Shown: in pieces, positions 12,881 through 64,000 of the stretch
Numbering within the stretch: position 1 is the stretch's first letter
Layout: every line of letters begins with the position of its first letter
Assembly (NCBI GenBank): GCA_036172245.1
Contig: JAYWIR010000007.1
Location: 4,774,001 to 4,838,000, forward strand
Reading direction: 5' to 3'
Length of the DNA: 64,000 nucleotides
Source of the DNA: Raillietiella orientalis
Taxonomy: Eukaryota
The notes under the pieces: model-generated
What the model saw: the letters and a program-made list of their open reading frames with translations, nothing else
Database searches by the model: none
Told to the model about the DNA's origin: nothing
Made by a program: the position numbers and the translations under genes

Positions 12881-13230
12881 ATGAGGTCAGGACGACAGGG
12901 ACGCCATCTATTTTGCTATCCTCTTCATGAGGACAGCGTCAAGATGGCTTCCATCTGGGAATCTTGAAACAGGAACTTGCCTGCATCCTTACAAGGATGC
13001 AGAAGACGCTCTCCAGCACACAGTGATCTCTTCCTGAACCCCTCATTTGTTTTTTGTTGTATGTTTTTCTTTTGATTTCTCTCCCCTTCCCCTGTGCTGC
13101 CTAGGCGACCCCGCTGGCCTGCGTGACAGATCACGGCAGGTTCTTTCCCGTATTCATTAGTAACGTGGCAGGATCAAACGTCCTGTCACAGACATGTGTT
13201 TATTTTCTATAAATAAACGCACCAGCGAGC
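12880..13230 (+). mobile_element. Short 3'-end copy of the same L1/Tx1-like family
   Basis: ELACILTRMQ-type C-terminal peptide, T-rich tract and gctgcc...cggcagg motif at 13096-13140. Confidence 0.6.
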
Positions 13231-13234
13231 CCCA

Positions 13235-13388
13235 CACCCGACACTCACAGGACAACCAGCGTCATCCTGAGGGGAGGGGACTCGAAACCCCACGACGCAC
13301 CCTCCGTTCTCGGGATCGATCCTCCACGTGGGTATTCGAACCTGCAACGCTTGGTACCGCGCGCGGGCACTGCAGCCACAAGGCCTCC
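13235..13388 (-). mobile_element. tRNA-derived SINE, copy 1
   Basis: On the minus strand, A-box-like TGGCTGCAGTG and B-box-like GGTTCGAATAC. Aligns with the copies at 16447 and 26780. Confidence 0.7.
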
Positions 13389-13499
13389 GACGCGGACAAT
13401 CCTCAACCTCTGGAAGCAGACAGGCATGCTCATCACGTGGATCTTCAACTGCGAACGAAAACGCATGGAACCGATGGCAGTGTTGACTGAGTGATTTGC

Positions 13500-16580: not shown

Positions 16581-16878
16581 CATAATCAACAACCGCATCT
16601 TGGAACTGCTTTCTCGTGATTTTGCCGAAAATTCCCTTTTATAGAGTTCCAACTGCGTTTTGCACTCTGAAGGTGCGAGGACGCCTTCTCTTGCTGCCGG
16701 CTTTAGCTAGAGCTGTCGTGTGTTGAACGAAGTCTCCCGAATCGCGGAATTCCAATGTTCGATTCCTTTCGTCGCCGGACAACCAGATGGCAAATCATCC
16801 GGATTTCGAACTTCTGTGTTTTCAGAGTTCCTCATTAAACGATGATGTTCTTTCAGGTGCTCGTCCCGAACCAACCTG

Positions 16879-22900: not shown

Positions 22901-23572
22901 AACTCTCTATTGTTCAGAGGCGACATCTCCTGGTGAATGAGATAGGGCCCGTTTCGAAAACTAAAAGTTGACCGCTGTCCTTCAATCTAGCACGTCAATG
23001 CGACTTTAGGGAATGGCATTCGAAATTGAGGAAAAAAACTTCACTATTACTTTCCGGCTACAGATCTCTGCTTCCTGCCCCTAACATCCTCATCCATGGA
23101 ATGCCTTCTGGAAACCCACCTACTGGAATGAAAGAAGGCAGGATGCTGAAGACCTCCGTCTCAGTTTTTTGCATACCGACTGGACACCGAACTTGTGGAG
23201 CCTCCCCCTGTATGTGTGTGGGGTGGCTGTTATGGATGGCGTTGCCATGTCGGTCCACTCTCGGACCCGTCCACTGTCTGCACCAAGCTTCGAGCGCGAG
23301 AGTGTGCGTCCGCAGCTTCCGAGCTTGATTTCCTGCGTCCGTCGTCATTCGCGTGGAGGGGAATCAAGGAATGCAAACAGAAGGTTTTTTTTTCCGCGCA
23401 TGCCAACTCAAGCGAACTCCAATCCACCTGCGTTTCCTTGGCTACCGGAGATGTGCCGATCATCTCCTTCCTTTCACTGTCGCCAATTTTTCCTTTTCTC
23501 GTATCCTTCAAGAACAAACACAGTTCTTCTTCACCGAGAGCTGCCCTGACTCTGCGAAGTCCGATCTCCAAC

Positions 23573-25448
23573 ATGGAACATTACAAGATCATCATCAGCA
23601 AGTTTGAAAAGTGCCAATTCTGTGGGAGGACGTTTTTTCCAGAACGGGTGCGTCGCCACGAGGAAATATGTGGGAAGTATCGCCCTCCGGTCCAGAAGTA
23701 CGATTCCAAGTTCCACAGGACCAGGCACCTTCCTTTGCTGTACGATGAGTACGCACCTGTTAGAAGAACTGAACTCCTGCTGAAGGTATAGACGCCTTCG
23801 GCGCCCTATGATCCTTCACTTCGTTGCTGGCTCCAGCTGTGACGATTTAGGCGGCTTCTCATAACCGTGGTGCTTTTGCCTCCGGCAACGCTTCCGCCGC
23901 CTGTGAGGCGGAGCCGACATGTCATCTGTGCTCGGTCTGCGCGTGCACTGTCATCCCGCTACAGGTGCCCTGAGACGAACTTTCCCACATTGGATCCCCG
24001 GCTATAGGCAGCTGCAGTCCTCTGGAAAGCTCCTCCTGTTCTCTGGTAACGAGGGTGGCCTCCGCCGCGCAGCTTTCTCCACCCCTTCCAACCAAGCAGG
24101 GCGGCGTACAGACCGACGCATCCTCGCTACACTCTAAGAAACTCAGTCATCCCTTTGCCCGTGACGGTCTTCTCTACTCCCTCTGCGGTCTCCTGTGTAT
24201 CACTCGACAGGTTTCGGAAGAAACATGCGGTAACCTGAGTTATCGGGTGTTCCTCGTCTTGATTCTCTCCTCTGACCTCTGTGAGAACAAGGATGCTTCG
24301 TGCTCCAGATGCCGAGTGCTTGAATTGTCGGCACATCAAGACCAGCTCACTCGGCCTCGGCGGGAACGAGCGAGCCTCCGTTTCCGTCTTCTTTTCGAGA
24401 GTCCTGGATGTTGGGATGCAGCATTCAGCACGCTCGAAAATATCTCTTCGTAGTCTTCCTCACTCGTGGTGATGGGCTCTCAGCACGAGGAGCGGGCTAT
24501 CCCTCGGTCAGCTATCAAGCCACTCCTCACGTTTTCTCGAAGATTGGGGTTTCGCCTGCGTCGCGTGAATCGAATGTTCTTGGAGGACCTCGGACCTCGG
24601 TGTGGAAAAAATTTCCTTTCCGCTCTAGGAGCAATGCCTCCACGACGCGAGGGAGGGGGCGTGAAGAGGAAGTGCTTGGCGTCTAAGGGCCTTAGGGTGA
24701 CAGAACCTCGTAGCCGCAGCATACAGGCGGTCGACGGTTGCGCGAACCTCAGAGAGATGATTGCTCGCGCGTCTCGATCTTCAGCCTTTCTCCGGAAGCG
24801 TTGGAACTCTTTGCTACTGCCCCATGCATTTCTGGAGGTTCAAGTTGGATTCTCTCTCGAAGATCGACTCGAGAAGGATGCTCAGAGAATCGATCGCTTC
24901 AGGAAGGAAAAGCATGAGGAGCGGAACATCTTTTCGCACTACACTGACCGTGACGTTACCTAATGAAAGGACGCGGGGATGGAAGCATCACACTTATCCT
25001 TTCGATGGACCGGCACCTACAACCTGGGAACCGGAAGATCTTCCGCAGTCTTCCGAGAGAAACGACGCCGGTCATCCTCCAGGAGACAGCCAGTGGGCAA
25101 AAGAAGACGAAGAACCGCCTTCGGCTAGAGCAGAACGAGAGGGTAGGTGGATTTCATCATCATACCAGATGTGCATCCGGCAATTCCGACGTTTTCCTCT
25201 TCCAAGATAAGCGATCAACAATTGACGAGTGGTCGTCTCTAACGGAAGAGACTCTGGAAAATGCGGAACGCGAAGGAGCGGTGCCCGATGCCCTCCCAGG
25301 CGTTCCGTCAAGTGCGCAGTCGGTGCCACCGATGCCTCCCTCCTCCCGAGATTTGCGACCGACAGAGGCGGAGCTGCCCGCAGGGATATCCTCAGAACTG
25401 GAGGAGCCGCTGCTGGAAAATGTGCAGCCATCCTCCGAGATCTCATGA
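23573..25448 (+). CDS. C2HC-type zinc finger protein (ZC2HC1-like N-terminus); probable exons 23573-23785, 24845-25142, 25207-25448 (250 aa)
   Basis: CQFCGRTFFPERVRRHEEIC followed by QKYDSKFHR matches the zf-C2HC_2 + FDS..R pattern. The downstream exons join in phase through GT-AG introns but encode low-complexity sequence. Confidence 0.65.
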
Positions 25449-30329: not shown

Positions 30330-31650
30330 TTCACCCCCTTAAGGGGGTCTCATCTCGAAGCTCGTTCAACACCGCCCGCGCCATCCGAGGGTGCGTGCAA
30401 CTCTTCAAGCTGTAAGGGGCACCCCCGGAGAGGACTTTCTCTGCATTCTGTCCATGATGCTGGCAAGTTCTGTGGGTTTCCTTCTCAGGTGGGGCCATCT
30501 GAAGGCGGTCTTCAAAAATTTGCCGTCCAGAGGATGGCGTCTCTGCCGTCCTGTCCTCCTCTTTGCGCGTTCCAGGCTGCCACGATTCCGCGGACACAGC
30601 AGAGAAATGCCGGGGACGCGGCTGGCGGCAGGGTGGCACGCTCAAAGAGGAGTCGAAAAGTGCCCCGTCGCTCGCTATTGGTCAGAATCGGTAAGACTTT
30701 GGTATGGTGACGGTGAACAGGGATCCGCGAAATTATACTCGAGAACTGTTCGCATGAGAACTCTTCTGAGCTCCCAGGATCTCGCCGGAGCTACTAGCAC
30801 CGCGAGATCTTGGTAGACGGAAGCTTCGGGAGGGCTCGTGTACGAACCCTCCTGCGCGCACCTTCACGACAAGCCTGGGGAAACTGCCTTCCGACAAGAA
30901 TACAATGCCGGAAGGCAGAGGCGTCTTTATCCCGGTGGTTGATTGCTGCCTATCTTCATGCACGGTCGCTTCAGACAGGTGAGTCATTGAGCACTCCGTG
31001 TAGAGTTTCCGTCTACCCGTGGTCGCCCTGCTGTTCACAACGACCAACACTTTTATGGGGTCCGATGAGTCCCCATCTGGCGCTGTGACCCGACGTTTGG
31101 TTCATCCCACAGAGTCATTTCTGCTTACCAAAATAGATCCACTGGAGGAGAGGGGAAAGGGCTGGATGAATTCGAGCTCCAGCTTCCAAGCAAGTCGGAC
31201 GTGCCACTCATTTGAAGCTTGACAAAGCGTTGAGTCGAGTTCGACTTCACGAGAAGTGCACTTTTGCCCCGAGGCCTCTAGCCATTCGATTAACCAGATG
31301 AGACCCGATTACTCTTTTGTCTTCTTTGACGAGAGCCATTATGCTGAGGGAAACTTCAGTTGGCCTCTCGTCCCCAGGTTCTGCTCTCATGACCGATTCG
31401 CTCGTCCGGATCTCTGCAGACCTCGACAGAGTTTTCCTCTGTTCTCGCTCTTGATTAGGCAAACAAGTGGGTGATTAAGCACCAAGAAGATGCCAGCAGG
31501 AATGTGCTTCGGTCTTCTGAGATCAAAAGAGAAGGAGTCAAATGATCTAAGAGCATGGAAGTTATTTCAGTTTGTTTGCATGCTATGGGGACTGGACAGT
31601 GATCCCTTGTTTCATCATTTTGGACTCTGGTGATCACATACTTGAGAACT
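30330..31650 (-). mobile_element. L1/Tx1-like ORF2 fragments (endonuclease end, linker, C-terminus)
   Basis: RDHCPV (SDH motif-like)...PSLL, then SAEIRTS...GDERPTEV, then IFEDRLQMA..ELASIMDRMQ. Confidence 0.55.
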
Positions 31651-33868: not shown

Positions 33869-36800
33869 TCAATAATAGTCCTCTTGAGTACTGTATTGTG
33901 CCTTATGATGTTGACTTAAGAGTTCTACTATTGACACTTCCTGCTCAGCTGCTTCATCTTCCTCCTCCAATTCTTCATCTTCCACGTCAGCAGCAACTGA
34001 ATTATCATCAGCGTTCGTCTTTTCACAGATTTGATTGCATTTTATTAATGGTTCACTGGATGTACTTTGTTCTGATTGGGGAATGGTTATTGGGGCCTCT
34101 TCCATAATGCTTAAGTTCCGTAACACGTCATAGTTGATTTTATTACTAATACGTTTTTCTTGCAACATTTTTGCAATGGCTTCACCTGCAGAATTTGCTG
34201 CAATTTGCGATTTCTTCCCCCTCAATCGCTTTTTCTTTGGTTTACCTTCAGCTTCTTCTTCAAGTTTCCTTTTTATTTTAACTACATTGAAGGTTTTTTT
34301 ATGAGACACCCTTCATGCACAAATTATACTTACTTTCTTGTTCTTTGAGGAATTCTTCATTCAGCTGCATCCACAGTTTTGTTTTTCTCTCAATTTCTTT
34401 AGCTGACATTATATATGAATCAATCTCTTCATCATCTATACCAGTGAGGTCCAGCAAATCACTGGAAACACAAGTTGTGGCTGTTTCCTTACCTACCTCT
34501 TTGTTACTGTTTGCAGAAGGCCTAGCTAAACATATTTTTTTCAGAAATTTGCATGTTTCAAATATTAGCTATGATACCTAAACCACATTTTGCTAGGGGC
34601 GTTAGGTTTCTGTCCTCGTTGCACAAGATCTCTTCAAGGTTTCCACTATTGTACATATCGATCATATCTAACGTTTCCTCCGTTATGAACTGAGATGCAT
34701 CTAGTCTTTCGGAATTTTCAAGATCAATTTCCATGATTTCTTGCATTGCTTGGAGCACTTAAAATCGTAATTACGCAGGTTTAAACAATAAGGGGGAAAC
34801 TTAAATAACTCACCTTGTGATTCTTTTTGAGTTCCATATATTTTCCTACGTTTCTGTTCCAACATTCTTTCAATTTCCTTTTGTAATACAATAAACTCAT
34901 ATGTGACCTCTTCCTGGTCTATTAACTGGAAGAGAATTAAAGAACGCATGATGTGAAACGGTTTAGAAACAATTGTCATTATGAGCTTATTCGATTTTTT
35001 CTGGGAAGAAGAAGGACTTGCTTTAAAGGAAGAAGGAAAAACGGGGAGAAAAAAACAGCGCAAGTGAGAACACTTCTGCCATGCAATTTGTGGCCGAAGA
35101 GCATCCATGATCGAGGCAGACCGTTCACTGTTTGCTTGCATTCTCAAATGCACTATACGCAAAAGTTCTCGAGAATGTGAGAAGCTGCAGAAAAAACTGA
35201 GCCCCAACATTATAAAAAAATTTATATTCAAAATTACAATGTTTTTTTTTTTTTTCCCGCACAAATACGTATTTGTAAACCAACGGCATGGGGGCACACG
35301 GAATATAACTGTAAGCCAACAACCTTTTTATGTTACATATCTTCAAAGTTTTCTGTTTATAAAATGCTAAATAATTGCATCTAGAAAACAACTATTACAT
35401 AAGATCGCTAAAAGACATACTTTTGCTCCACGAGCAAATAGAAGGAAGTACGATCGGAGATTTTCAAATAATTGTAGGGTACTTCAGGATGAAATAACTC
35501 TGCACAAATAAAAAATGACTGCCAACAGACAAATCACGAAGATACTGAATGAAGAAGAACAGCTGCCCAGCAATCCTTCGAAGGAATTTGAGGAATCGTG
35601 GAATTTATTTGAAAGGGCGAAAAGACAACCACACTGTGCATCCAACTTCCATTGCATCTCTCATACGCAATATATGTTCAAACTCTGTTTTGGCATTTCT
35701 ACCAAGAACAGTACGAAACACCCACAATCCCCAAAAAGCTTAAACCCTTTCGGTGACTGTCGAGAAATCTCAGAGTGGAGCGAAATTCTTGGCATCAAAA
35801 ACAAAAAAACGCTGCCCTGGATGATGAAGTTAAAGCGGTACGTACACACAGCATACAAAGTAAGATCCCGCGTAGGAAAAACTAAGAGTTTGGTGTGTAA
35901 TCCGACTTTCTTTAGACTGCAGGCTTCTGTGAAAGAGGCTTTCCTTCACATGCTGGCAAAGTGTTCTCCTTCCAGCGGCACGACGGCCCAGCATCCTCCG
36001 GAAGTCTGTTTCCATGCAACACGCCTATAACGGTAATCTTTCTGCAAGGGTGCACGTCAGTGTGCATAGGGCAGTGACGGACACGGACACCGACTTCCTC
36101 GCATAAAAAGCTGCACGGTCTCCTACGCTTTAAGATTTCCGAAAGGCAGCATCCCTGTAACAACCAATACTCCCTTGGAATTCGAACAATAAATGCGAAA
36201 TAAATGTGAGAACGGAGGGATTAAATCACACCACTTGAAAGATGATCGTTCACTGAAGCCTGCACCTTATTCCTCGACAAACTTACTGACACGTGTATCA
36301 TCCAGGTTATGCAACCTGCCGACTATCAGAATCTCATCTCAGCATCCTGGACCGCTTAATAAACAGCTGCTTAATTCGAAATTGGTTTAACGCACTTCCA
36401 AGAGGATCTCGATCCGATCTCAGTGGCTTTCTTTCTGAAATGGATTCGTAATCCTTCGAGAAAACAGCAAATTTCGAAACATTCACGTTCGCGAAAAACA
36501 TGGGCCTTTTGACCTATTGAAACGCTCGAGTCGTCTTTGCACGAGTTGGTCCATAGGTGAACCGCGGATCATGTAGCAGCACGACTCAGATGCCGTACCA
36601 CTTTCCGAAAGTTTCCACATCTCGCCTTCATGGCAGCCTCTGTTACGGATGCATCCGGAATCGCAGTGAACCGACACATTTACTGCACCCCGTTGTCAGC
36701 AGGTGCAGAATTCATGCCAAGCGAACCAGCAGCATACCTCACTATGAGAATACAAGTTGCATTCTTACATAAAAGTAGAAGGAACACTGATGACGCCTTC

Positions 36801-39800
36801 ATGTAGGATCATAGACTGCTGGAAGATTCTGGGGTGGCAAACCTTACAGATAATACCTTGGGCATTTTCCGCACTGTGGAAAATGTCGGAAAGCGAGAAG
36901 ACGGCATTTTGCCTCGTGCTTAACGTTTTGTCACGAGCACTTCCAAGAAAATCCTGTCTTTCCTTTTCCGAGGAATGTCAAAGAGCGTGGTTGAAGCGAA
37001 AACAGCAATGAAGGTGCGGATGGGCAATCAGACACTGTGAGGTGATTCACTTGGATTTCCCTTTGGCTCTCCATATTCCTGCCGAACAAATGACATTCGA
37101 TCAGCAGGGTGCTGCAACGGAGGCTGCCAGACGTCGCACACAAAGGCATCCTTTGGGTTCAAAGATATCCACTTTCCACCACCAACACTTCCCTACTGTT
37201 AGCGAAATACTCTAGACAGAAATCCACGGAAAGAAACGAAATCAAACCTTCCGAACGAATATTTTTTTTTAAAAAAAAAAAACATTGGGAGTATCCTTAC
37301 ACCGAACACCGACAGACCGCATTTGTGTGGGATCAAAATTACATAACACTGTTGCCAATGTCTACTTTCCGAAAGTTTCACCTCATGCTAAAAACTTTTC
37401 ACGATTAGAAAAGATGAGATTTCATACCGTGGGATGAAATACATGCACGGATCATAGAAATTTGTTCTTAAAACATGTAAAACGAAATTCAACTCGGATG
37501 TCCACAATACATAATGAACGTTCCAATGTCTACCTTGTTGATTTTATCTTTTTTTCTTGCACTTTTAAAACAGGGCGGGTCTTGTTCTTCTTCTAAATCT
37601 ATACTCATAAATTCGTCGAAAGTTAACGAACTTGAAGGAGTTTCACCAAATTCCATTAAACGCTTTCGAAGTGTTGATTCATGAACCCTCACAATATGAA
37701 CGATATCTTGTACATCACGCCTGAAATCATGAAGACGGGCTGCAATAAGAAGAGCTAAAACGTGAAAGAATATATAAGTTAATATTCTAGGAATCATGAT
37801 TGGTTTGCATTCAGTGTAAGGTGGTTCAGAGGCTTGGAAAATATGGATCCAGTACAATGTATTTTCGATTAGTTTCACTTAAGAGGTAAGATACGGAATG
37901 TACTACAAATCCGACACGTCCACTATGATATTTCGGTTTACATGCAAGCAATCTCGAGTTTCATTTTAGAGACAAATTAAGTTCATGACTGCCTTGATCC
38001 AGCACAAGGCAGAAGTACTGATGACGGTAAAAAAAATTCCATGGGAAACCTATAAAAACTACAGTATAAGAAGCAATGCTGAGTGTCAGTTCTTTCAGAA
38101 AAGAAGGCAATGATGGCTGGAAAAAAAAAATCCTTGGTTGCCAGGGAAATTATCCGAGGCTTGCAGCTGATGCTGTAAGCAAACGAATAAGCGGATTTTA
38201 TGATTCCATTTGATGAAAAATTTAAAAAGAAATCAAAGGCAAAGAGCTGAAAGAAACTCGATCCAACATGGAAAACGAAGGAAAACATCCTATGGGCATA
38301 CAATCTAAAAATCTCAAGAAACAAAGTACTCTGGAACAAAGAAATCACAATGATAATCTGTCAATTAGGAACTGCCTCAAGGAGAATAGTAGAATGGATA
38401 ACATCGGGGAGGTCTATGAAAACAGGAGATGCCGAAAGTTTGATGTTAGCAGGACCCATGCATCAGACAATCCTGTACAACTCAATCCTTAAGAGAAGTC
38501 CATTCATGTACAGCAAAAGGAAACTATGGAAAGACAAAGGGAACAGACGGAGAAAATGAAAAGTAAAAAACAAAAACAAACACACTGAGGAACTATTCAA
38601 CTGGCAAGCTTTTAAAAAAACTGGAAAGTCAACTTCGTACAGAGACTGTATCCACTTAAGGATATTGGAACCACTCTGTGGAAGACCAAACTGCATCCGG
38701 AAATGTTAGATATAGTTTACTCCTCCTTTTCCACACAAGTTCAAGATAAATAAAAAAAAACTCAACCATTGGCATCAAAACCGAGCAGACCAGTAATGTC
38801 CCACATGTGAACAGATTGAGATGCAAATGCACATTTTCCATTGTGAAACTCCGGGCAGTAACTTCAAACACGTAAGATGACTTTAACAGGCGAAGGGAAA
38901 GACGCAGTAAGAGGAATGTTAGAAGAACAAGGCGTTGCTCCCAAGTATAACCTACCACAGAGAATGTAAATTCTTCATTGCAGCACTCTTGGTCAGAAGG
39001 TAGAAAATAAAAAATGCAAAATGAACGACAGCAAAAGAGGCGTGTTGAAGAAGGAAACTGCTATCTATAGATGTGACCACCTTCCTTCAGAAATGCCTCA
39101 GTACTTACTGAGAAAAAGAACCACATTTTAGAACATTTTTTTGAAAAACCAGAAACATTCCTGATGCAAAGTTCAGTGTACATTCAACTACTGTAAATGG
39201 TATAATGCGTATTGCAAAATGTGAAAAGTAAAACACTCCTGATGTACATGAATCAAGGAAAACACTAACTTCTTAGGGAATTGAAATGGTACGAATCAAA
39301 AGTGAAAGGAGGCAAAAGAAGAATTGTGAACACTAATAAGACATATACACACAAAAAAGAAACAAGTATACACATATATGAGTGGGGATGGGCAAAATTT
39401 CGAGTACTGTCTTTCTAAATGAAAAATTGTTTCAGAAAATTCAAAGGCTTTTGCTACATTATATTACTTTCAGATTACATTACAATGAAGGCACGGTGCT
39501 AAAAACCATTTTTTGCAATATGAATTTGCATGCCATTTTCGTTTTCTGCATGCAAGACATAGTGGTGTTTAGCATCATTTCACGTCTTTGAATTCTGATT
39601 CTGGGAGAATTCAGCATAACATTCAGAAATCAAGATGTTGGCAAAATTTGCAAACATACTGGTATCACAATAAATGCATCGATTTCAGTACACATCATTA
39701 ATCCAGTAGGAACGAGATGAACCTACCAGCCCCACATAATCCTGAAGGGCGACGACCAGTATGTATCCAGTCACGTTTCATCCTTTGCACCAATTTAAGG

Positions 39801-42800
39801 GCGGTCATTGCAACTTCCTGAGTTTTCTTTCCAAACTGCAACTTGTGAGCAAACCTCAGAATATACAAGCACGGATCTAAACAAAAACACGACATCGAAT
39901 CTTTATTATTTTAAGGATTATTTTGAGTACTTCTGAAAAATAACAACAGAGTCCTTTACATGTATATTTACTGCGGGAAGTTACGAGTCACCCACCTAAT
40001 TTTAAGCAAATTTAGTTGCTCATTAATGGAATGAAATATTTTTCAGTGCTTTATACTTTAAATGCTGGTCAATGTCGGGCATGATTGGCCCATTCTCTGA
40101 ATAACTGCAACCAAAGTTAACAAGATGTAGTCAATATGCAGATGCTTATTAGCAAAACTATTCAGAAAGTCTTCACATGGCTTCAGAGACCAAAAGTTCA
40201 ACTTCCAGAACGTGAAATGAATGCGAGAAGCACAGGGGACAAATGGATAACGAAACAAAACGAAAAACTAATCACGTCTACAACACTTCTGCGTCTACAA
40301 CATTCTTGTGGTTGGGTAAAGAAATCGAAAGTGATTCTTCCCCATCGGAAATGGAAACGACGACACTGTTCAGGGGCAAAACTGTGCACCCTTTCTGCTT
40401 CTGGAGCGTCGAAAGATTCTGGATACCGTCAAGGCTGCCTTTCCATCACACATCTCGGACCCGGGCTGCTTCGCGACCGCGCGGATCAAAGATGAAATTC
40501 AACATTTGTTACACGTGCGAAATCCACAGTATCCGTGTTTAGGGAGAAATGAGCATCTTTGGAACCAACACTCCTCCAAAAATGGTTTCGCCTCGCAGAA
40601 CGACTACTGCTGTGTTGCCACTTACATGAAATCCACAAAACGAATAGAATACGAACCCCATGTACGTAGGGGAGATTCCAGAAATATGCAAATGCTCTAA
40701 ACATGGAGGTGGTCAACCAACACTGTAATCCCTTAGTATGCCAGCCCACACCAGCACATTCAGAGAAGGATACAAATCGAAAAAGGAAAACAGACTTTTC
40801 GATGAAATCCAGTCTGGGAAAAAAGGAAAACATGCTTCCTGATCCGCATTCTTCACATTCTTTCCCAAATAGTGTGCTAGATACTCAACGAAAGGTAAAA
40901 AAAATATCCTAAATTCGTGGGGCTTTATGAATTATTTGGGTAGACTTTCGCTTACGACCAACCTGTGATGTCTCCCACTCAACCTGACTATGCATATGAC
41001 CAGCCGCATTTCAAAGATGCAGCTGCATACTTCTACAGAAAAGACGGCTTAACGATAAAAATTCCAGGTAATTTACGTAACTCTCCTTTACCCCAAATCG
41101 GATTGCATTGTAAACAAAACCTTTACTTGATCCGAGACATTCTTCCATCACTGCAGAGCATTCACCATTTCTTCAATAGGCTGCAAAGTGTAGCGACTCA
41201 ATCTATGAACCCAAACACAGTGGTCTTCAGTTTCTGGTAAACAAAGCCTACCTGGTGTTTCATTTAATCATAGGAATCTTGACACAAGAAATTTGACCGA
41301 ATACGTTTTCCCCAAATTTAAAACAAAACCTATCCTCGTCCATTTTTCTGATGTGTACGTAAAGCTCAGTCTATCCGATTAACCTGATGCTTGAGACAAC
41401 TCATGTCAGAACGCAAGAGATGAGGAACCACACGTTTCTCCAGAAAGCCTTCTTCTTTCTGAAGAAATGGGAGAAGCGATGGTATGGTCGAAGCTACCAA
41501 CAGTCCGACCTTTTCCATAACACGAGACAATAGAAACGACTAATGCTAGAGGCAACCTTTTCTGTTGTGTACACAGTTTAAAAGCTCCGTAGAAGCAGTG
41601 AAACAATTTCCTGATTTACTGTACGCACTCGGACTTCTACACACGGGAGAACTTTCCTTTCAATTTCGTGGATCGTTTCAATACATTCACATAAGGTATT
41701 AATCAAGGTATTTCGAGAAATTACCCCAGAAAAGAATTTGTTATTGATACTATCGCCCACTTATGAAAAAAAGGAAAGGATTCTATTTTTCCAAATTTAT
41801 GGAAACCGATTTAGCTACTTCAAAAATTAGTGCATTTTGCAAAAAAAAAAATAAAATAAAATAAAATGAAAAATCCGGATATTTTCGTCATTTATGCACG
41901 AAGCAATACCGTGGTACGAGGTACTGCACCAAATTCTGAAGACATGACAAGATTTCCGCATCGAACGTGCTGCTGTTGTTTTGATCGCGAGATTTCGAGA
42001 GAGAACGTCCTTGAACGATTCCTCCTTTTTCGGTATAAGAAAAAAAAACAAAAACAAAACAGCTGAACGTGTGACAACTCTTCCCGGAACGCGGATGCTC
42101 GAATCGACATATCTTCCCAAAACGACTTTTCAAGCATTGCGTTTTGTTCCCCGGAAGACGGTTTGATGCTGCTCGGAGAAGATGGACTCGTAGTACTTGA
42201 TCTCGACCTTGGTTGATTTTCCTCCGGTGCTTTCTTTGAAATATGTTAAGGTGTTCACTGCCAAAGAAAGTGAAAATGATTTCTGTGAACCAACCACAAC
42301 GAAAAATGTTGTTGAGAGCTGATGATTACCTAGAAATGATAACGTCAAAAAAAAAAAAGGGGGGGGGGGGGAGGACCCCTGAAGTGTATTAACGATTCGA
42401 ACCAATTCCAAAATATAGCTTAATAACACCGTGATCACTTTTCACGTCTATATTTTCCCACAAACTGACTATTAAACTGGTCAACTAACTCTTGCATCTT
42501 TCCTTTGCATTCATCAACACTTCTAAAAAAAAAAAAAAAAAAAAAAAAATTTTTTTCTAACAAGATGGGCGCTTTCCTTTCGAAAGCTGGTGCAGGGCTT
42601 GATGAAGCTGTGCAAATGTGCTCTTCTGCTTATGCAAGCACCTTCTGCAACCGAGATGTTTATCGGATGAGAAAATAAAGAGCGGATAGCCTCGGGCAGA
42701 ACCAAAGCACGCTCGCAGGCTTTCTGCAAAACAGAAGCGTAGGGAAAGCACTGGTCAATCACTTTCGTCGCGTTTCTATCCCAATGAAGAAATATCGAAT

Positions 42801-45800
42801 CCTTCCGTTCTTAAGGAGGCATTTCTGGAGCCAAGGCGGGTGCTTCGTACGCGCACGGATTGCCAGTCTCGGAATGAACAAAAAAAAAAAACGGTTGTGG
42901 TTAAAACGGGCGAAGCGCGCCACAAGTGGAAAAAAAAATAAATAAATAAATAAATCTCCGGCGTTCGCTTGCTGAGAGGGGATCCCAAAGACTGAAGGCG
43001 GGGATTCTAAACGGGATGGGTCAGAATCGCGTTTTCACGGCTCCACAGGGAACGACGAGAGCGCAGAGCTTTGCCCACTTTTTCGATGGGGACCGCACAC
43101 ACCCACGATGCGCAAGCGGAACCAATCCGTAAGGGAGCGAAAAACGTCAATACAAGTCATGTGCAAGCAAAACGAACATACATGTCAAATCCTGCACATG
43201 TTTACGAGCGTTTCGTACCAGGCAAAATGTGAATTCATTTCACAGCTTTGGGTTTTTTGGGGGGGAGGGGGGTTTTTTGGTTTTTTCTCATTAAGCAATG
43301 TTATCACCTCGCTGTCGTATGTAAATGAATCAATAACGCAACTATCGATTACTGTAAAGAACACAATTTCTCAGGCAAATTTCTCAAAAGTGGGTCCTCG
43401 ACAAACGTCGAATTGCACGTTAATGTCACAAGTAAACATTACAGTGCTGTGTGAGAGTAACTACTATAAAACCGTCAACAAACGAGTAAGCATTTCGAAG
43501 TGTATGGAAACACGAAAAAATACAATGGCTTTTTTTCACAATCTCAAATATTCTTGAGCTAGAAAGTGTTGTGCCTTACAATGCATAGCGTACGTTCTTG
43601 TTAACTCCAGGGAAAGAATAGTAGGGAAGTAACTGAACCACGCTTTTGTGACTGGTATATAATAAATTCGATACAAAATATACTTTTGCATTTATAAAGA
43701 AATGCCTCCTTGCACTAAACAACTGCAGGTAGTTGTGATTGTAGGTTGATGAATCAAATGAATGATCAGATCAAATGAATCAAAAACACAGCATGCTAAG
43801 AACCTCAAAATATCAAAATCAAGATTTTCCTGATATAAATGGGTCTTCAAAACAGAGAATTTTCCCAAATATCTTAAATCCAGTTTTGAATAAGAATACA
43901 AACAGTGAAAATTCCACGAGCAATGGTAAGAATAATCTTATATGAGATGCCTGGATATGATCCTACTTAATATTTTAAATATACATTTTCAAGATGTTAT
44001 ACAGGAAGCTCCAGGGAATCAGAAAAATCTATATACTTGCCAAGTTTTCCAAGAACAAAATGAAATTATCCAAGATCAACTAGAGAAGAGTTTCAACTCA
44101 ATTCAATTAATGCAACCAGATGATTCCTCAACAGACAATATTTCATCTGAAGAAACAACTATGGCAATGCCAGCTTGTGAGTACAATTGGCAAGCACACA
44201 AATGTACTGTTAAGGAAAGGAATGCGACAATGCTCAACAATACACTAATGTCAGATGTTCAGTTTGTTGTTGGCTCTAATGGTATTAAGTACATGTACAT
44301 GTATTCTTGTGTCACACTTTTTTCCTCCAGGTAATGCACAGAAAATACCTGCACACAAATATGTTCTAGCTACCGGAAGCTCAGTATTTTTTGCAATGTT
44401 TTATGGTAGCTTAGCTGAAAATAAAGAGGTCATAGTGCCTGATGTTGAACCCAATGCATTTTTAGCATTATTAAGGTAAGTATTTTGTAAATATCCACAT
44501 GTGGTTAACTAGTATTCAGATACCTATACTGTGATGAAATAAACTTAGATGCAGATAATGTTCTATTTATACTATATGTAGCTAAAAAGTACATGGTTTC
44601 ATATTTAGCCAAAGCATGCATAAGTTTTCTAGAAGCCAACTTATCTGCAAAAAATGCTTGCTTATTACTTAGTCAGTCTCATCTATTTGAAGAAGCAGAT
44701 TTAATGGGAAAATGTTGGGAAGTAATTGATGCACAGGTCATTTAATATTTATTCAAGAATCTAATTTTTACTTTATTCATTAGACAGAAATAGCTCTGCA
44801 GTCAGAAGGATATGTCAATATTGATTTCAAAAGTTTTAAGTCAATTTTAGAAAGGGAAACACTAAATTGTCGAGAAATAGTCATTTTTGATGCTGCTCTT
44901 AAATGGGCTGCAGCAGAATGCACAAGACAAGAAATGGAGCAAAGTTCTCAGAATATGCGAAAAGTGCTTGGGGAAGCCTTTTTATTACTTCGTATTCCTA
45001 CAATGACTATGGAGGAATTTGCTAATGGCCCTGCACAGAGTGGTGTTTTAACTTTACAAGAAATCACAGACATCTTTCTCCATTTCACTGCTAGAAAAAA
45101 ACCGGAACTTTATTTTCCTACAAAAAATCGAGTTGGTTTAAAGCCACAACTGTGCCACAGATTTCTATCTTGTGCTTATCGTGGGAATCAGTGGAAGTGC
45201 AGAGGAAGAACCGACAGCATTCAATTTTGTGTTGATAAACGTATATTTGTTGTTGGCATGGGTTTATATGGCTCATCAAATGGTGCTGCTGAATACTGTG
45301 TAAAGATTGAGCTAAAGAGACTAGGCCAGACTCTATCAACTAACAATGCAAAGTTTTTTTCTGATGGATCAAGCAATACATTCAGTGTGTTTTTTAATCA
45401 CCCAATTCAAGTGGAACCAGATCTCTACTATACAGCTTCAGCTGTTCTAGATGGTGGTGAACTTAGCTACTTTGGACAAGAAGGAATGAGTGAAGTGCAA
45501 GTTGAAAATGTCACATTCCAATTTCAGGGTTCTAGTGATAGCACAAATGGTACAGGAGTACAAGGAGGTCAAATACCAGAACTTATTTTTTATAAACCAA
45601 TGAGCAACTGAGTTGCAATTTATCATTAAAGCTAGCAGTTGAAAGCATTTGGTAAATTACATACCTACAGCTGGAATGCTGATACATAATGCAGTTGCCA
45701 GGCGAAGAAAAGTATGTCCCAGTTCATAGACATCAATCTAAAATTTGCATTTGCATTAGCATTTAGTATCTAGCATTAAATTGTTACCTGTAGAGCATCA

Positions 45801-48800
45801 CTGAAATCTATTAACAAATCTAAAACTGAATCAAGGAATGCACTGTGGTATCAAATATATAAACAATTTTAAAACCAAGCCAATAACTAGTCTTTCTGTA
45901 TAACAACTCTACTGTCATTCCATATTTAAATGGGATTTTGTTTTTTTTAATTGAGAGTCCACTGTTCTTACTTAATAAATTTCAGCAGAAATATGCTAAT
46001 CACTTATTTCAGTCATATGGCGGTCAAAATGTTGAATGATAAAGTCAAACAAAATTAGATTAAAATGAAGAAATGAAATTTTTTAAATATCAGAATGCAT
46101 TATATTCTTTGAATTAATATTAAGTACCAGATTGGAAGATAAAGTAGACAAATATTTCTTAAGAACGAACTACTGATTTGCCTTCATGGTTGATTGATTG
46201 ATTTTCAAATTTTTATAAAGTACTCCAGATAAACAAAAAAAAGAAATCATCGAAATGCTTACAAACATGTGAATCTTGTTTGTAAAACAAAGCAGGTATA
46301 CGGAAAATGAAATTAACAATCGACTTGAATTCCTGATCATGCTATTTGTAGTCACTGTGAAAAAGGATACGTGGTGTGCCCTCAGTGCGACAAGTAATAT
46401 ATAGGCAAGATGCAATAACATGACTATTTTTTCTTCCACATGTTAGTCGACGAGATAGTGCCATTTTAAAAAAATTGAAAGCAGTATCAATGCAATGTTG
46501 ATTAAGCTGCAGTATCTGTCCTAGATGTTTCAGTTTTTTATGAGCATTTCTGAGTGTGATTTCTCTTGATTCTATCCCAAATCCTGATTGAAATCCTGGA
46601 AAGAAAGTCTCCTTTATCTTCTTACATAACAAAAAAACTATCGTGCTTTATGATTTTCACAAATCTGAAAAGCCTAGGTCCTGTGCTAAGCATTGTAAAC
46701 AATAGATTTTAGTTGAGTTCATTTTTAAATTTCCTTGTTTTTCATTAATCTGTTTTGATGATGGTCACCTAATACAATTTATTGTATTTTTTAGGAGAGT
46801 TATGTCAGGCAAATTTTTTAAAGTTACTGAAAATTTATACTTTGTATGTAGATGGTAATTAAGTTATTTAAGTGAATAACTTAAACTACGATCAGCATTT
46901 CCATATTTCAATTTCCGACATATTGAGAAACTTAATTCACTAATCATTTTTTATTTGAGAATAACCAAACCTAATTGTTTTAAAATCGAAAGTTTTTTCC
47001 ACCAACTTCAAAGTTTGATTGGCAAAGGTTCAAACAAATGTTAACTTTAATGTATGTACCAAATGTTAATGTATTTCCTAGTCATTGCCAACATTATGAA
47101 TTCACAATGATTGCTCTCATCAATAAAACTCAAAATAATTCCATTAAAAGTATAAAAAACTAAAAATTAAAAGAAATCATTATTCAAAATAGGCGTTTAA
47201 TTTTCAGATTTCAAAACGATATTCTTCCGGGTACTAATGTTCAATAGTGCACCATTGAAGTTTCCTAAATAATTCTAACAAAAACGATTCGGATCGAAAA
47301 ATCACCATTCCTGAGGGGGGGGGGGGGGGGGTATCCATTTAGCTTTGCATTGTTTCTAGGAAACTGAAACTTGTGCAAAAATGCCAAATCTATTTGGTTC
47401 TCCCAAACAGAATTAGAGCCCTCACTTGAAACCAACAACAATACACTGAGATAGGAAATGAAAAATTAATTCGGTGCCATGGTGAAACCAATGTGCAACA
47501 TTAATCTTCAAATTATCTAATCCGGTTATCCATAGTTTTTAAATTGAATTTCAATATTTAATTTATTCCATAGAAAATAATTCCACAAATATTAAACCCC
47601 AAAATTTTGTATTCTAAATGTATAATTTTAACAATAATAGCAAATGCTTCAATTTCCTTTAAAACCAAAAATGTCGACAAGTGGACTAATTTTCATCAAA
47701 ACAAACAAATCAATCTATCACTTGCTGTAAAATAAAAAATAATATTAAATTAAATACCATATACCTTTAATACAAATTTAACCAATAAAATAAAAATGAA
47801 TTATTCTTCCTATATAATCCCATTTTTAATTCCTGTGGAATAATGAATACAAAAAACAATTTTTGAACAAATAATAGTTCATCTATACAACATTTTACTC
47901 AAACTAGATATCTTTGCCAGTCATGTTATTATTTGTTTCAGTTCTATAATAACCAGGTTTGTTTTTGCTACATAAGTAAGAGCAAATGTATTATGTAAGT
48001 TTCTCAGTTTCTCAAAAATTATTATTTGCAAACGTACTCTAAAGTGTTATTAAGCATGTAATTTTAACATTACATTCCTATTGAAACACAGAAACCTGTT
48101 GAGATACACTGAGAGGGTGAAACTTGAAAATAGCATGTTAAGAAAATTGTATTATTATACATTTTGCTCTGACATATTATGTACGATTCGATTCTTTCTG
48201 CTATAAATATCATATATCGATGCTCTACTTTTACTGAAATTGATTAGTGATTGTCGACTAAATTATTCTGATATCAGTAAACTCTCATTCCAGTTCATCC
48301 CCTGTTTTCATCTTTCAACAGACTTTGTATATACTAAAAACTAAAACCTTTGCACAAACAAGTAAACTACACATGAAATGAAACATTCTCTTTTAATGAG
48401 AACTGCTATCACAATATCAATCTTGTTCAAACAACATTTGTTAGGGTGCTAGATGTAGCAAATTACTGATTCTTATAATACATGGAACTTATAACAGTAT
48501 GTGTAGATATGCAGAAAACGAGAAATCTGATCCAAGGCAAAACAAAAAGAAACACTTCGATTTCTCAGCAATGACTTTAGTGTATTGTCCTCTAAATACT
48601 TCCATTCTCTGTATTTTCCTTCCATACACTTTTTACTGAATTTTTACTTGGACTCTTGAACAGAATTTTCATTTGCAGCTTGTTTAATGAATAGTTACCA
48701 AAATCATGCATGCTTCCTGCAAATTGTAATACTGTTGTATAGATTTTATTTTCAAGAAGGCTGAGATTTACAAAAGCAAAAGTAGCAAATACAAATGAGT

Positions 48801-50826
48801 TTGTGTTACCAACAGTACAGATATATTTGAAAATATGTTGAAGATACTGTTTAAGAAAAAGGCAAAACCAATACATCCACAACAAGCAAAGTAGAGCAAT
48901 TGGTAGACTTTTAAGCACAGAAAAAATAATCACTAGTGTGTTTTCAGACTTTGCAGCATAATATATTTGCAGCAATGGTTTTTACATAGTACACCATTAA
49001 ATACATACCACAATACACTGATTTGTGCAAAAGGTATCTGTAACCAAATTCATCCAATTACAAAAAAACTCATGAAGGTAACTCCACAAAAGTGATAAAA
49101 CATAATCTGTGTGCAAACAATAAGTTACAAACTTACATTTCTTCAATAAGCGCAAACTTTGAAAAATAAACAATTTTAAAATAGCATGGTTATGAAAATA
49201 ACTATTTAATAATAGACCACAAGTTAACTGAGTCACTTGCATATCTTACTGAAACCCTACACCACTACTATAGATGAAATACACCAACTACATCAACTAT
49301 CACAGCATATCATAAATTGCATAATTATTATAAAAAATTATTCAACTACTATAATCACAAAGAACATCAATGACAGGATTACAATACAAGGAATTTGAGG
49401 CATTTGATGAATGCTAAGTTGAAGAAGTTTTATCAGAGATGAATTCAGATAAAACTGAAGTAGTTTTTTTTTTATTTCCCAACAACTGATGCCAAGATGC
49501 TGATATATATTATTATGTGCTAGCTTTACTTTGTGTAATTCATGTATTGGAAATAGAAAAACAATTGTAAATCAATTTGTGTGTTCCGAAAACAATTACG
49601 AATCAATCTGTTTGTCCACCTTCTTCCTGAACTTTGCTTCTTGCAAATTAAACAGTCTCGTGGTTTAACAATTTAACAAAACTATCCAGTGTATGTATAT
49701 TCTTTAATATATCCAATTTCACAACTTCAAATGAACCTTTCATACAAGTTTTGGTCAATTTATCTCTTCAATTTCATTAATTAGAATTCGTTGAGATTAA
49801 TAACTTAATTTAAATGAACCGTTAATTGATGCTACTTTAAACCAACATCAATATCAATTCATCTTTGAATGCTCAATGCCTGTATTTGGGTGATTCTTGA
49901 TATTAAATCTTTCATGATTCAAAAAAAATTTTTCGCATTTTAATTTCGTAGACTCAGTTCCTTATTGAAATTTAAAACAATTTAACACCTAACATCATCC
50001 TCAATTAGATTTGGATCAAATTTTTGTTTTGATACCTCATGTTAACGAATATCAGAGTTTACTTATATTCAGGACTCATTGAATGTATAATATATCATTA
50101 GAAAAATATGCTATTTTTCGCATATGACTGAGCTTCAGCTAGGGGATTGTGGGTTGGGAGGATTTTAAAATCCTCGTGCCTAGAACTTACAAAGATAAAT
50201 CATTCTTCTTATGATGTCTGAAAACTTTGGAAATAAGACAATAACATAACACTGTTATCACTTATTATGTTGCCAATAATGTATTCTATACTCCAGCTTT
50301 ATTTGCAACATAACCAGTAAAACAAAAATTCATATTCTAAGAAATTAAATCCAGTATTAACCACCATAAGTACTATTAATACACAAATAAACAAATATGA
50401 AAATTAAAAATAAATAATAAAATGCACAGTAGGGTACATCAAATAATGCCGGATCCATGTGTAAGTTCAAAATAAAAATACAGACATTTTATAAATAGAC
50501 ATTTATTAAATTTCTGCACACTTGATAAATTGGTTTTGAAAAGTTATAAGACAGTGGCATTTTTTCCAAAATAAGGTGGAAATAAATTCCTCTAAAGAAT
50601 ATGCACAAATCTTACCTGCAAGTAAAGTTTTTCCTTTTCCATCAATACCAACAAACTGTCCTACAACTCCACTACCACCCTGATTAGTTTCTTCAAACTG
50701 AACATCAGAAACAATAGCATTTTCTTCAAGAACAGAACCACAGTTCATGCAAACTGCATCTCCTCGACTTGGATCGATGTCAATATCACTTGAACCACAC
50801 TGATGACATGTATTCCTTGCTGACAT
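33869..50826 (-). CDS. BRF1: TFIIIB subunit BRF1; exons 50826-50616, 46595-46371, 45819-45788, 45737-45665, 39876-39727, 37754-37534, 34925-34814, 34757-34578, 34525-34334, 34281-33869 (602 aa)
   Basis: Zn ribbon CHQC...[15 protein letters not shown] cyclin repeats ([14 protein letters not shown], [29 protein letters not shown]) and BRF1 C-terminal motifs ([19 protein letters not shown]). Total 1809 nt in phase. Confidence 0.96.
38250..39250 (+). mobile_element. AT-rich non-LTR retrotransposon 3' relic inside a BRF1 intron
   Basis: [15 protein letters not shown]...[16 protein letters not shown] (zf-RVT CxxC-H-C) at ~38675-38845. Confidence 0.55.
43775..45611 (+). CDS. BTBD6: BTB-BACK-PHR protein (BTBD3/BTBD6-like); exons 43775-43925, 43994-44281, 44331-44475, 44520-44736, 44784-45611 (542 aa)
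   Basis: NWQA.K.TVKERNA.M...[35 protein letters not shown] region, and PHR domain ending [18 protein letters not shown]. Exons in phase. BTBD3 versus BTBD6 orthology is not resolved. Confidence 0.93.
48080..49400 (-). pseudogene. Possible multi-transmembrane (gustatory-receptor-like) pseudogene in BRF1 intron 1
   Basis: Successive hydrophobic ORF pieces (48997-49242, 48592-48975) and a terminal [18 protein letters not shown] resembling the GR TM7 motif. Many stops. Confidence 0.25.
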
Positions 50827-61927: not shown

Positions 61928-62822
61928 TTAAATTCTTTTAATTGGTTCATTTTCACAGCTGTTTATGATTTCCACAACTGGCCTATATATTTCATCATTT
62001 AGTTGTTCTATGCTTTTGCTTGCATCCAGTATTTTCCAATTTTCATCTATGAAACATTCATAATTCTTGTAAACTCGTTTTTGAAAATCGATATTTTCAT
62101 AGCGTTCATCTCCAAATCCTTCCCTCAGTTTTAAAGCTTCATCACTCAAATTTAGGAAAAAGACCAAATCTGGCTGAAGAAGTGATTTCTCTGAATTGTA
62201 GCACCAATGAATATCCATATTCTAGAATGAGTAATTAGTGAAATGAAACTCTTGAATTCCTTTTTTACAGGTTTTGCTGCACTAAAGGCTATTCCTGAAT
62301 AGGAGTATCTGTCAGCTATTAGGGTTGTGCCTCCTAATAATCTATCTTTCATATACTCACTGAAATATAATAGTTAATTTTAGAATTCTTACAAACTGCA
62401 AAATAACACACTTGGGACAAATACCAATTTATATACATAGGACCTTGTAATTTGAAACCTTCCAAAAAGAATGTGAAAAGACATCACATTCATGTATGCA
62501 AAAATTTTCCAATGCAAACTAATGAATGCTTACTATTTTTCCCATCTGTTCGCAGTAAACAGTAAATGAAGGGCATGATCCTCCACTTCAAGTGCACTCC
62601 GCAAATACGAATCTATTAGCTTGCCAATGGGTGACCGCCTATCTAAAAATTTGCATATATTGCAAACGATAAATTGCTTTTGTCACCTGGAAACTTTAGC
62701 AATTCTGCTTTCACATTATGTTTCCGCAATCGCTCAACCAGTAATGTTCCTTGTGTGGTTTTGCCACTTCTATCACAGCCTTCCAACGCAATGAATGCTC
62801 CTCGTTTAAAACGTCTGGCCAT
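61928..62822 (-). CDS. DTYMK: Thymidylate kinase; exons 62822-62687, 62642-62534, 62359-62269, 62221-61928 (209 aa)
   Basis: RGAFIALEGCDRSGKTTQ P-loop, FPDR, HLLFTANRWE, DRYSYSGIAFS, PDLV and FGDERYE. Confidence 0.97.
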
Positions 62823-63789
62823 TTAAAAATTCTACTGATGCAAATATCACACTTTCAAAATTGTCAAAAGAGTACCTCTATGTTTCTGAATTTGAGGAGT
62901 AAATGGGATCTATTATTTTGCACGGAAGAAACTTACCCTAATCCTGGAAAATTAACATGGAACAGTTCAACAGTTCATGCTCATTCCCTTCAGCAAAAAA
63001 GCGCACAGTTAGGTCAGTTTCATGGACCGCCTCCAGAAATCGGCAATCGGCTTGAAATTCAATCTCCTTATTGCAAAAATGGGTAAAACTAACCATTCAT
63101 TAGGCAATGTGATCTAGACCGAGGTCCTCCGATTAAATCCAAAAAGCTCTTTGGGAAACAATTCAAATGCACCTCTTACTTATTTTATGAGCTAATCAAA
63201 ACTAAATTTTTTTATTGAAGCAGATGAAGTAAACTTATTCAAAAGGATAGAATATTTTGCAAAAAAAAAAAAAAAAACGTACCATTGTAAACAGTCGCAT
63301 AAAAGGCAACGGCCGCCACAAATTACACATGAAAATGACAACCTATTTTAGAAAACCCGAAAATTGGGAGGTAGACGGTATGTACTTCATGTTACTCCTA
63401 ACCCTTGCTTTTTGTTCTCAACCCACGTGTCTTGCACATATAGGAGATACTTTCAATTAATTTTCTATTTGCTGTTTTGAGAGCCGTGCGTAGGTCCCAG
63501 TGGATGTGCCTTTTATACCTGATTTTATAAAGTTTATAAAATCAAGTAAACTATTTCTTATTGGAATTTTTGGACGGAGAAAATGAAAAAAAATTGCTAG
63601 TACAGCCTTGTCAGAAACTTCAAAGCATGCGAGGCTTTCCATAGTGAGTTTGCTGCAATTTTCATTGTCTATCCTGTTAAAGAATTTCACAATTGCTTCT
63701 TACTCCACTCTCAAACAGATTGGTTTCTGCAAAAAGGAGATTCTTACGATTTTGTGTGTAATGAGATTATTGTTTTTGGCTATTATGGA

Positions 63790-64000
63790 GGAAAAAAAGG
63801 AGTGATGTATGGTAATTTCTCGGTCGATGACGACACTAAGAAGCTCAATTGCCGGCACTGCAAAAACACAATCAGTGCAACTGGAGTCAGCGTTGGGAAT
63901 CTGTTTCGACACTTGCAAACTAAGCACTCAACAGTTCCCTTGATCAGAATAACACCATCCGGAGAAGTAGCTCTGTCATTCATTCTTCTGCCCCATGTAA
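63790..64000 (+). mobile_element. BED zinc-finger fragment (hAT transposase-like N-terminus), frameshifted
   Basis: KRSDVW / NFSVDDDTKKLNCRHCKNTISATGVSVGNLFRHLQTKH matches BED W-F-CxxC-NL.RHL...H, with a frameshift after W. Runs to the window edge. Confidence 0.7.

Follow-up and report, generated by a model that had tools for sequence, protein, structure and literature searches.

The window analyzed here is a 64,000-nucleotide stretch of the Raillietiella orientalis genome (contig JAYWIR010000007.1, positions 4,774,001 to 4,838,000; all coordinates below are those of the window), in which we identified a BTB-BACK-PHR gene of the BTBD3/6-lute type (the guest) lying wholly within the fourth coding intron of BRF1 (the host). 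The guest occupies the strand opposite to BRF1, and its 3' end faces the upstream BRF1 exon 4. A BTBD3/6-family guest in the same intron, phase and orientation was identified from published annotation of the human BRF1/BTBD6 locus, and BRF1 exons ending at the same codon and in the same phase were found beside BTBD3/6 genes in nine public metagenome contigs. We consider it probable (roughly 0.8) that this represents an orthologous host-guest pair inherited from at least the protostome-deuterostome ancestor.

Based on splice sites, the guest coding sequence (43775-45611, +) and the surrounding BRF1 intron (39877-45664, -) could be delimited to the base, confirming the coordinates proposed in a first-pass annotation of the window as well as its placement of the intron within the ...IPAV/DPCLY codon (slashes in such motifs mark splice junctions). 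The intron is in phase 1 and splits the Asp codon as G/AT, with exon 4 contributing the G and exon 5 beginning AT CCG TGC. It is the longest of the nine BRF1 introns. The guest start at 43775 lies 3.9 kb from BRF1 exon 5, and its stop codon lies only 53 nt from the exon-4 donor; from these positions, the guest 3' untranslated region (UTR) is predicted to overlap the host 5' splice-site region or exon 4 itself. The remainder of the host intron has little recognizable content: no tRNA genes were found in the whole window, and so none in the intron, Rfam returned no match in the intron, other open reading frames (ORFs) of at least 90 amino acids in the intron carry no Pfam domain, and the only repeats in it are a 17-nt pair and an A25 run. 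The features of the nest and of the guest are as follows.

39877..45664, - strand: BRF1 intron 4 (host intron), 5788 nt, phase 1; donor G/gtatgt at 45665/45664, acceptor ttgtttag/AT at 39877/39876
43775..43925, + strand: guest exon 1; start codon, donor gtaaga
43994..44281, + strand: guest exon 2; acceptor ttcaag, donor gtatta, frame kept
44331..44475, + strand: guest exon 3, GT-AG; first half of the BTB domain (PF00651, 6.8e-9, 36.3 bits)
44520..44736, + strand: guest exon 4, GT-AG; second half of the BTB domain (PF00651, 1.8e-4, 22.1 bits)
44784..45611, + strand: guest exon 5; BACK and PHR region, stop codon TGA at 45609-45611
45612..45664, no strand assigned: gap of 53 nt between the guest stop and the BRF1 exon-4 donor, with ATTAAA at 45625-45630

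The five guest exons, all bounded by GT-AG junctions, join into an open frame of 1629 nt encoding 542 amino acids, and an in-frame stop lies three codons upstream of the ATG. The N-terminal region shows no conservation, such that an additional upstream exon is possible. Both halves of the BTB domain score above the Pfam cut-off for PF00651 (20.5 bits), and exon 2 had no match in the Pfam scan. Exon 5 matches the PHR model over its full length (PF08005, 4.9e-47, 160.7 bits, positions 1-151 of 151), as well as the PHR structures of human BTBD2 (3NO8, 103 bits) and MYCBP2. The BACK match in this exon is weak (PF07707, 19.3 bits against a cut-off of 20.9), exon 5 having been scanned alone and the domain crossing an exon junction; homologs of the guest carry PF07707. 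BTBD6/lute is reportedly needed for neuronal development, to go by the title of Bury et al. 2008. A role as a CUL3 substrate adaptor is known for zebrafish Btbd6, according to the accessible part of a preprint (bioRxiv 10.1101/575910), and by homology the guest would be a CUL3 substrate adaptor as well.

The host gene, encoding the 90-kDa subunit of TFIIIB, is equally complete. Ten GT-AG coding exons on the minus strand run from an ATG at 50826 to a stop codon at 33869-33871 and encode 602 amino acids with a single, terminal stop. Over 550 aligned residues, the predicted protein is 55.8% identical to cockroach BRF1 and 50% identical to primate BRF1, and it was placed within the arthropod BRF1 clade (support 99). 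The domain order is that of a full BRF1, comprising a zinc ribbon (PF08271), two TFIIB cyclin repeats (PF00382, detected in three exons) and the Brf1 TBP-binding domain (PF07741). A micro-exon of 32 nt is required, as the frame of the 602-residue model breaks without it. The BRF1 exons are listed below.

50616..50826, - strand: exon 1; ATG at 50826 after an in-frame stop, TFIIB-type zinc ribbon (PF08271, 2.6e-11)
46371..46595, - strand: exon 2; first cyclin/TFIIB repeat (PF00382, 4e-18; yeast Brf1 structures, 2.3e-16)
45788..45819, - strand: exon 3; the 32-nt micro-exon, with flanking introns of 551 nt and 50 nt
45665..45737, - strand: exon 4; ends ...CISIPAV + G and corresponds to human residues 158-181
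39727..39876, - strand: exon 5; 150 nt, DPCLY...GLCGA + G, start of the second cyclin repeat (PF00382, 2.2e-11)
37534..37754, - strand: exon 6; remainder of the second cyclin repeat (PF00382, 3.4e-6)
34925-34814, 34757-34578, 34525-34334 and 34281-33869, - strand: exons 7-10; Brf1 TBP-binding domain (PF07741, 6.1e-12) and stop codon

Phylogenetic placement of the guest distinguishes the BTBD3/6 type from the related BTBD1/2 type. A search with exon 5 identified 512 longer proteins at E<=1e-10, with 67-72% identity to arthropod lute/BTBD6 proteins; the named proteins among the best 120 of these 512 matches were all arthropod lute, BTBD6 or BTBD3, apart from one "BTBD2-like" and one "btbd1". A search of 1.84 billion representatives yielded 118 proteins at E<=1e-30. 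A tree of full-length representatives (61 rows) placed the window protein in a clade of 21 rows (Shimodaira-Hasegawa-like approximate likelihood ratio test, SH-aLRT, 99) together with arthropod lute proteins and P0246, a protein that matches the BTB domain of human BTBD6 (2VKP) with 173 bits. P0262, whose PHR matches that of human BTBD2 (3NO8) with 236 bits, belongs to a separate clade. A 50-row tree, which includes named nemertean, mollusc, brachiopod, annelid, amphioxus, lamprey and vertebrate BTBD3 proteins, separated the ingroup from BTBD1/2-type rows with support of 100 and placed the window protein in an arthropod group (91). Clade labels in these trees derive from the matches to 2VKP and 3NO8 and from named BTBD3, BTBD3_6 and lute proteins, named full-length human BTBD6 and BTBD1 not being among the rows. 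Both trees thus uphold the earlier description of the guest as BTBD3/6-like, in that it groups inside this clade and apart from BTBD1/2-type proteins.

A double annotation of a single human variant locates BTBD6 relative to the exons of BRF1. In the portion of PMC12052365 available, chr14:105249697 is given both as BTBD6 c.642C>T (synonymous) and as BRF1 ENST00000547530.7 c.544+2810G>A (intron variant), and the complementary bases of the two descriptions indicate that the genes lie on opposite strands. Since c.544 is the first base of BRF1 codon 182, and codon 182 encodes the Asp of ...NAPAIDPCLY in the 677-residue primate BRF1 (P0237), human BTBD6 occupies the intron homologous to the one that hosts the guest in the window, and phase and orientation agree as well. 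The exon structure on either side is also comparable: human isoform 10 (P0221, NCBI) is identical to P0237 over residues 1-181 and then lacks exactly 50 residues, or 150 nt, which is the length of the exon following the intron in the window, and human isoform 4 diverges after residue 158, corresponding to the junction of exons 3 and 4 in the window. The statement in the first-pass annotation that human BTBD6 lies antisense within BRF1 is therefore borne out by this double annotation, which in addition identifies the homologous intron at codon 182.

The human locus (14q32.33) resembles the window in having a BTBD3/6-family guest antisense in the phase-1, codon-182 intron, with the 3' end of the guest facing the upstream exon. 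It differs in having a larger intron: 2810 nt separate the variant from the upstream exon, and one transcript (c.104-8283) puts the next exon 8283 nt away from it; this transcript's intron is probably the same one, which would bring its total length to ~11 kb. It differs also in possessing internal BRF1 promoters within that intron. Several short human BRF1 transcripts begin downstream of the variant in the direction of BRF1 (upstream_gene_variant, c.-569 to c.-2695; PMC12052365), and, as far as this annotation extends, their starts imply promoters beyond the 5' end of BTBD6. Human BTBD6 may share a divergent promoter region with these internal promoters. Vertebrates further differ from the window in having a second paralog, BTBD3, located away from BRF1: the metagenome locus L005, nearly identical to mammalian BTBD3, served as a paralog control and lacks BRF1 exons in its flanks (7.6 kb downstream, 4.3 kb upstream).

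To survey other lineages, public metagenome contigs were scanned with an alignment of BTBD3/6 proteins, which identified 59 loci, all of them scoring higher with BTBD3/6-clade than with BTBD1/2-type queries. BRF1 exons were then sought in these loci by tblastn and with a hidden Markov model (HMM) built from 91 BRF1 proteins. By both methods, 11 of the 59 loci contain BRF1 exons, which in every case lie antisense to the guest and beyond its 3' end. In nine of these 11, representing ~8 different organisms, the nearest BRF1 exon ends G/GT at the codon corresponding to human residues 181/182. The codon and phase of the host intron thus coincide in the window (G/AT), in human (c.544+) and in nine contigs (G/GT), as expected if the BTBD3/6 gene sits in a homologous intron. 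The distance between the guest stop and the BRF1 exon end in each of the nine loci is given below.

L001: 183 nt
L003: 243 nt
L012: 485 nt
L008: 579 nt
L015: 664 nt
L014: 805 nt
L032: 862 nt
L027: 4978 nt
L018: 4991 nt

One of these contigs, L008, contains the full nest, with the residue-181 exon ending at 10917, the guest at 8685-10337 and the next BRF1 exon from 7416 (cag/AT CCG, D-PIIY..., ending GLCGA + G/gt). It was left unplaced by the trees, and its best named relative is a nemertean (77% identity). The remaining loci show the exon-4 side alone; nesting is implied there too, since an internal exon with its donor directed at the guest has to be spliced to exons on the far side of it. Across compact genomes the whole host intron spans 3.5-5.8 kb. 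Several of the loci could be assigned to lineages. L012 falls in the vertebrate clade (98), and its BRF1 exon shares 96% identity with that of primates. L014 was placed with molluscs (85), and the BRF1 of L015 was placed with that of Haliotis (89). On the arthropod side, L001 and L003 join Daphnia (96), and L027 joins a stick insect (81). A candidate BRF1 exon over residues 143-191 in L018 and L027, which would have indicated a different intron position, was rejected as read-through past a G/GTGAGT donor.

Parsimony favors an ancestral nest, since vertebrates, mollusc-like contigs and several lines of arthropods all have it and the sole proven un-nested state falls within arthropods. The first-pass annotation had proposed an ancestral bilaterian pair kept by a regulatory constraint between an RNA polymerase III factor and a CUL3 adaptor; the support obtained is for the shared ancestry and not for the constraint. 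The shared exon end and orientation among vertebrate-, mollusc-, crustacean- and insect-like as well as unplaced contigs fit a protostome-deuterostome ancestor; the sampling of lineages is limited, and several long contigs have no BRF1 exon.

A number of observations weigh against an ancestral, stably inherited nest. The BRF1 exons on either side of the guest are both visible in no more than three cases, namely the window, L008 and, as annotated in PMC12052365, human, with nesting at the other eight loci deduced from the exon-4 side. Taxon labels of the contigs derive from quick trees with moderate support, and the lineages covered are vertebrate-, mollusc- and arthropod-like or unplaced, with non-bilaterians, nematodes and Drosophila outside the sample. 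Moreover, BRF1 exons were not detected, even at weak thresholds, in 16 loci whose downstream flank measures 1 kb or more; in these, the nest may have been lost, or the gap may exceed the flank. They are distributed as follows.

L005 (the paralog control), L007, L025, L029, L050, L057, L059: no BRF1 exon
L019, L028: no BRF1 exon; same or nearly the same organism as L018/L027, with flanks shorter than the 5-kb gap of the latter
L013: no BRF1 exon; sister of L015, flank of 1.9 kb
L023, L026, L046, L051: no BRF1 exon; one crustacean-type clade, flanks up to 10 kb (L023, 10 kb)
L030: no BRF1 exon; flank of 10 kb
L034: no BRF1 exon; bee-like, flank of 10 kb

The clearest case against permanence is provided by two springtail-like loci, L040 and L045, whose BRF1 sequences group with springtail BRF1 (support 100). 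Neither has an intron at human codon 182, a single exon spanning human residues 147-231, and in both the whole of BRF1 is convergent (tail to tail) with the guest, ~0.5 kb from the guest stop. The pair can therefore be un-nested. The two loci are arranged as follows.

L040: BRF1 at 12235-14962, - strand; guest at 10001-11733
L045: BRF1 at 12308-15231, - strand; guest at 10001-11762

In both loci, the host intron disappeared along with the exit of the guest, and the two genes are still adjacent. Retention of the intron at residue 231 indicates that this was not a simple replacement of BRF1 by a cDNA copy.

How the nest would operate and persist can be outlined from the gene structures. The BTBD3/6 gene would constitute a separate transcription unit on the opposite strand, within a phase-1 intron between the two cyclin repeats of BRF1. 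BRF1 pre-mRNA would be transcribed across the guest, which would be removed with the intron, and the guest itself would be transcribed from a promoter of its own towards the exon-5 end of the intron. We propose that the nest has persisted chiefly through the difficulty of dissolving it: an intron loss would take the guest with it, and the guest could leave only by a local duplication or transposition that spares both genes. That the only lineage with the guest outside BRF1 has also lost the intron is in line with such mutational inertia.

The alternative that the nest has been kept by function, with antisense transcription into the exon-4 donor region or shared intron elements coupling the output of both genes, is closest to the regulatory constraint suggested by the first-pass annotation; we regard it as unlikely, though several features of the data hint at it. 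One possible route is that guest transcription favors forms of the BRF1 transcript that retain intron 4 or stop within it. In compact cases, namely the window and seven loci, only 53-862 nt separate the 3' end of the guest from the upstream BRF1 exon, and the guest 5' end lies kilobases away from exon 5 (3.9 kb in the window, ~1.3 kb in L008). Furthermore, two Daphnia-like contigs of transcript type (L001:1-2234 and L003:1-2727) join a spliced guest mRNA to spliced antisense BRF1 exons 1-4 and the unspliced start of intron 4. A relative of these, L002, ends in poly(A), and the genomic contig L031 has introns of ~60 nt where L001 and L003 have none. Together these features suggest that sense and antisense transcripts overlap, or that BRF1 transcripts terminate inside the intron, but the merged contigs may also represent joins made by unstranded assembly. 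Similarly, five public BRF1 models (P0121, P0123, P0147, P0160 and P0169, from a dragonfly, a barnacle, two fishes and one transcript assembly) read through the exon-4 donor and stop in the intron (...IP.M/I then G...). Either these proteins are shortened isoforms or the nested gene has disrupted their gene models, and as protein models they may be artefacts of gene prediction. The short human isoforms that begin in the same intron beyond the 5' end of the guest, as described in the available part of PMC12052365, are also compatible with functional coupling.

Against such coupling, tight apposition is not universal: a gap of ~5 kb separates the genes in the insect-like L018 and L027, and the human BTBD6 c.642 variant lies 2.8 kb from the exon. 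Springtail-like genomes, moreover, tolerate un-nesting, and reviews, in the parts accessible, report no functional links between hosts and guests in general (PMC3488318, PMC3325483). As the cause of persistence, neutral inertia is at least as likely as a regulatory link; a cis-regulatory or antisense constraint may add to the effect of inertia.

A more specific form of coupling, to which we assign a still lower likelihood, is that of a working regulatory module. Transcription of the CUL3 adaptor gene would run head-on into the exon-4 donor, so that more BRF1 transcripts retain intron 4 or terminate within it; such transcripts would encode no more than the zinc ribbon and the first cyclin repeat. 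If so, expression of a neuronal differentiation adaptor would lower full-length TFIIIB, and with it RNA polymerase III (Pol III) output, in the same cell. Judging by the titles of papers, neurodevelopmental phenotypes are associated with both BRF1 and BTBD6.

Independent entry of BTBD3/6 genes into the same BRF1 intron in vertebrates and in protostomes is very improbable. A long and permissive intron might invite repeated insertion, intron 4 being the longest in the window BRF1 at 5788 nt, and nested genes are held to be gained more often than lost in the accessible part of a review (PMC3488318). Yet in the window, in human and in nine contigs from ~8 organisms, one and the same ortholog would have had to arrive at an identical codon, phase, strand and side of the intron, and repeated chance insertion of one gene into one intron is very unlikely; in addition, springtail-like genomes keep the two genes adjacent. 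An artefact, either a misassembly or a processed guest copy lodged in the intron, is scarcely credible, given four canonical introns in the guest, which argue against a retrocopy, its open frame, the presence of its domains, and the same layout in independent assemblies.

The probably inherited BTBD6/BRF1 pair has few known counterparts. The closest is that of TIMP genes in synapsin introns, described in the part of PMC2825198 available as a reversed guest at a conserved site of the host protein, in an arrangement whose conservation reaches from sea anemone to human, nematodes having lost it. BTBD6/BRF1 shares with it the reversed guest in a host intron, the conserved site in the host protein and the loss in some lineages. 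Apart from the gene families involved, the two differ, as far as that account goes, in depth, the TIMP nest extending back to sea anemone and BTBD6/BRF1 being traced to bilaterians, and in that TIMP guests have multiplied in some lineages, whereas no multiplication of the guest was seen for BTBD6/BRF1.

Ancient conserved microsynteny has reportedly been explained by Irimia et al. 2012 through a "bystander" model of the host gene. BTBD6/BRF1 is similar in the linkage, lasting hundreds of millions of years, of a housekeeping gene (BRF1) to a developmental gene; it differs in being known here by gene positions and in the small size of its host introns in compact genomes (3.5-5.8 kb). The pair also resembles convergent cis-natural antisense pairs, in that the guest 3' end abuts a host exon (53 nt in the window) and the L001 and L003 transcript contigs join both genes, with the difference that the overlap in the window is predicted from positions only.

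The layout of human BTBD6 within BRF1 is already visible in standard annotation. Literature text searches returned no paper describing or dating the conservation of the BTBD6-BRF1 nest; supplementary microsynteny lists lay outside these searches and may well contain the pair.

Beyond the nest, the window includes a number of features that were noted in passing. A 28S rRNA fragment on the minus strand, ~2.4 kb beyond the BRF1 stop, is the only Rfam match, and no other rRNA matches were found in the 27-34 kb section of the window. Also identified was a 26-kb block with higher G+C content than its flanks and long ORFs on both strands, in which only two Pfam matches were detected. These and the remaining features, which include parts of genes neighboring the nest, are listed below.

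30888-31458, - strand: 28S rRNA fragment, Rfam LSU positions 831-1379 (76.7 and 26.5 bits)
4000-30000, both strands: block of 49-59% G+C between flanks of 29-45% G+C
16846-18534, + strand: ORF of 563 aa with zf-MYND, within the G+C-rich block
23150-23788, + strand: zf-C2HC, within the G+C-rich block
1386-2192, - strand: exon of the ATP-synthase alpha/beta-family nucleotide-binding domain (2e-74), with a weaker V/A-type C-terminal domain match at 814-1125
61931-62221, - strand: thymidylate kinase exon
63601-63999, + strand: BED zinc-finger ORF

Reviews, in the parts accessible, treat nested protein-coding genes as neutral, easily gained passengers without a link to their host (PMC3488318, PMC3325483). 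Few host-guest pairs are kept in one and the same intron across arthropods, molluscs and humans, TIMP/synapsin being the textbook case. A second such pair, in which a housekeeping Pol III initiation factor hosts a neuronal CUL3 adaptor, provides a natural experiment that can help in separating mutational inertia from regulatory constraint. In one lineage, the springtail-like one, the nest was left and the intron lost while the genes stayed neighbors. The nest also bears on how these genes are annotated: it appears to break gene models, several public BRF1 proteins stopping in intron 4, and it explains why human variants and methylation marks at the locus are assigned to both genes.

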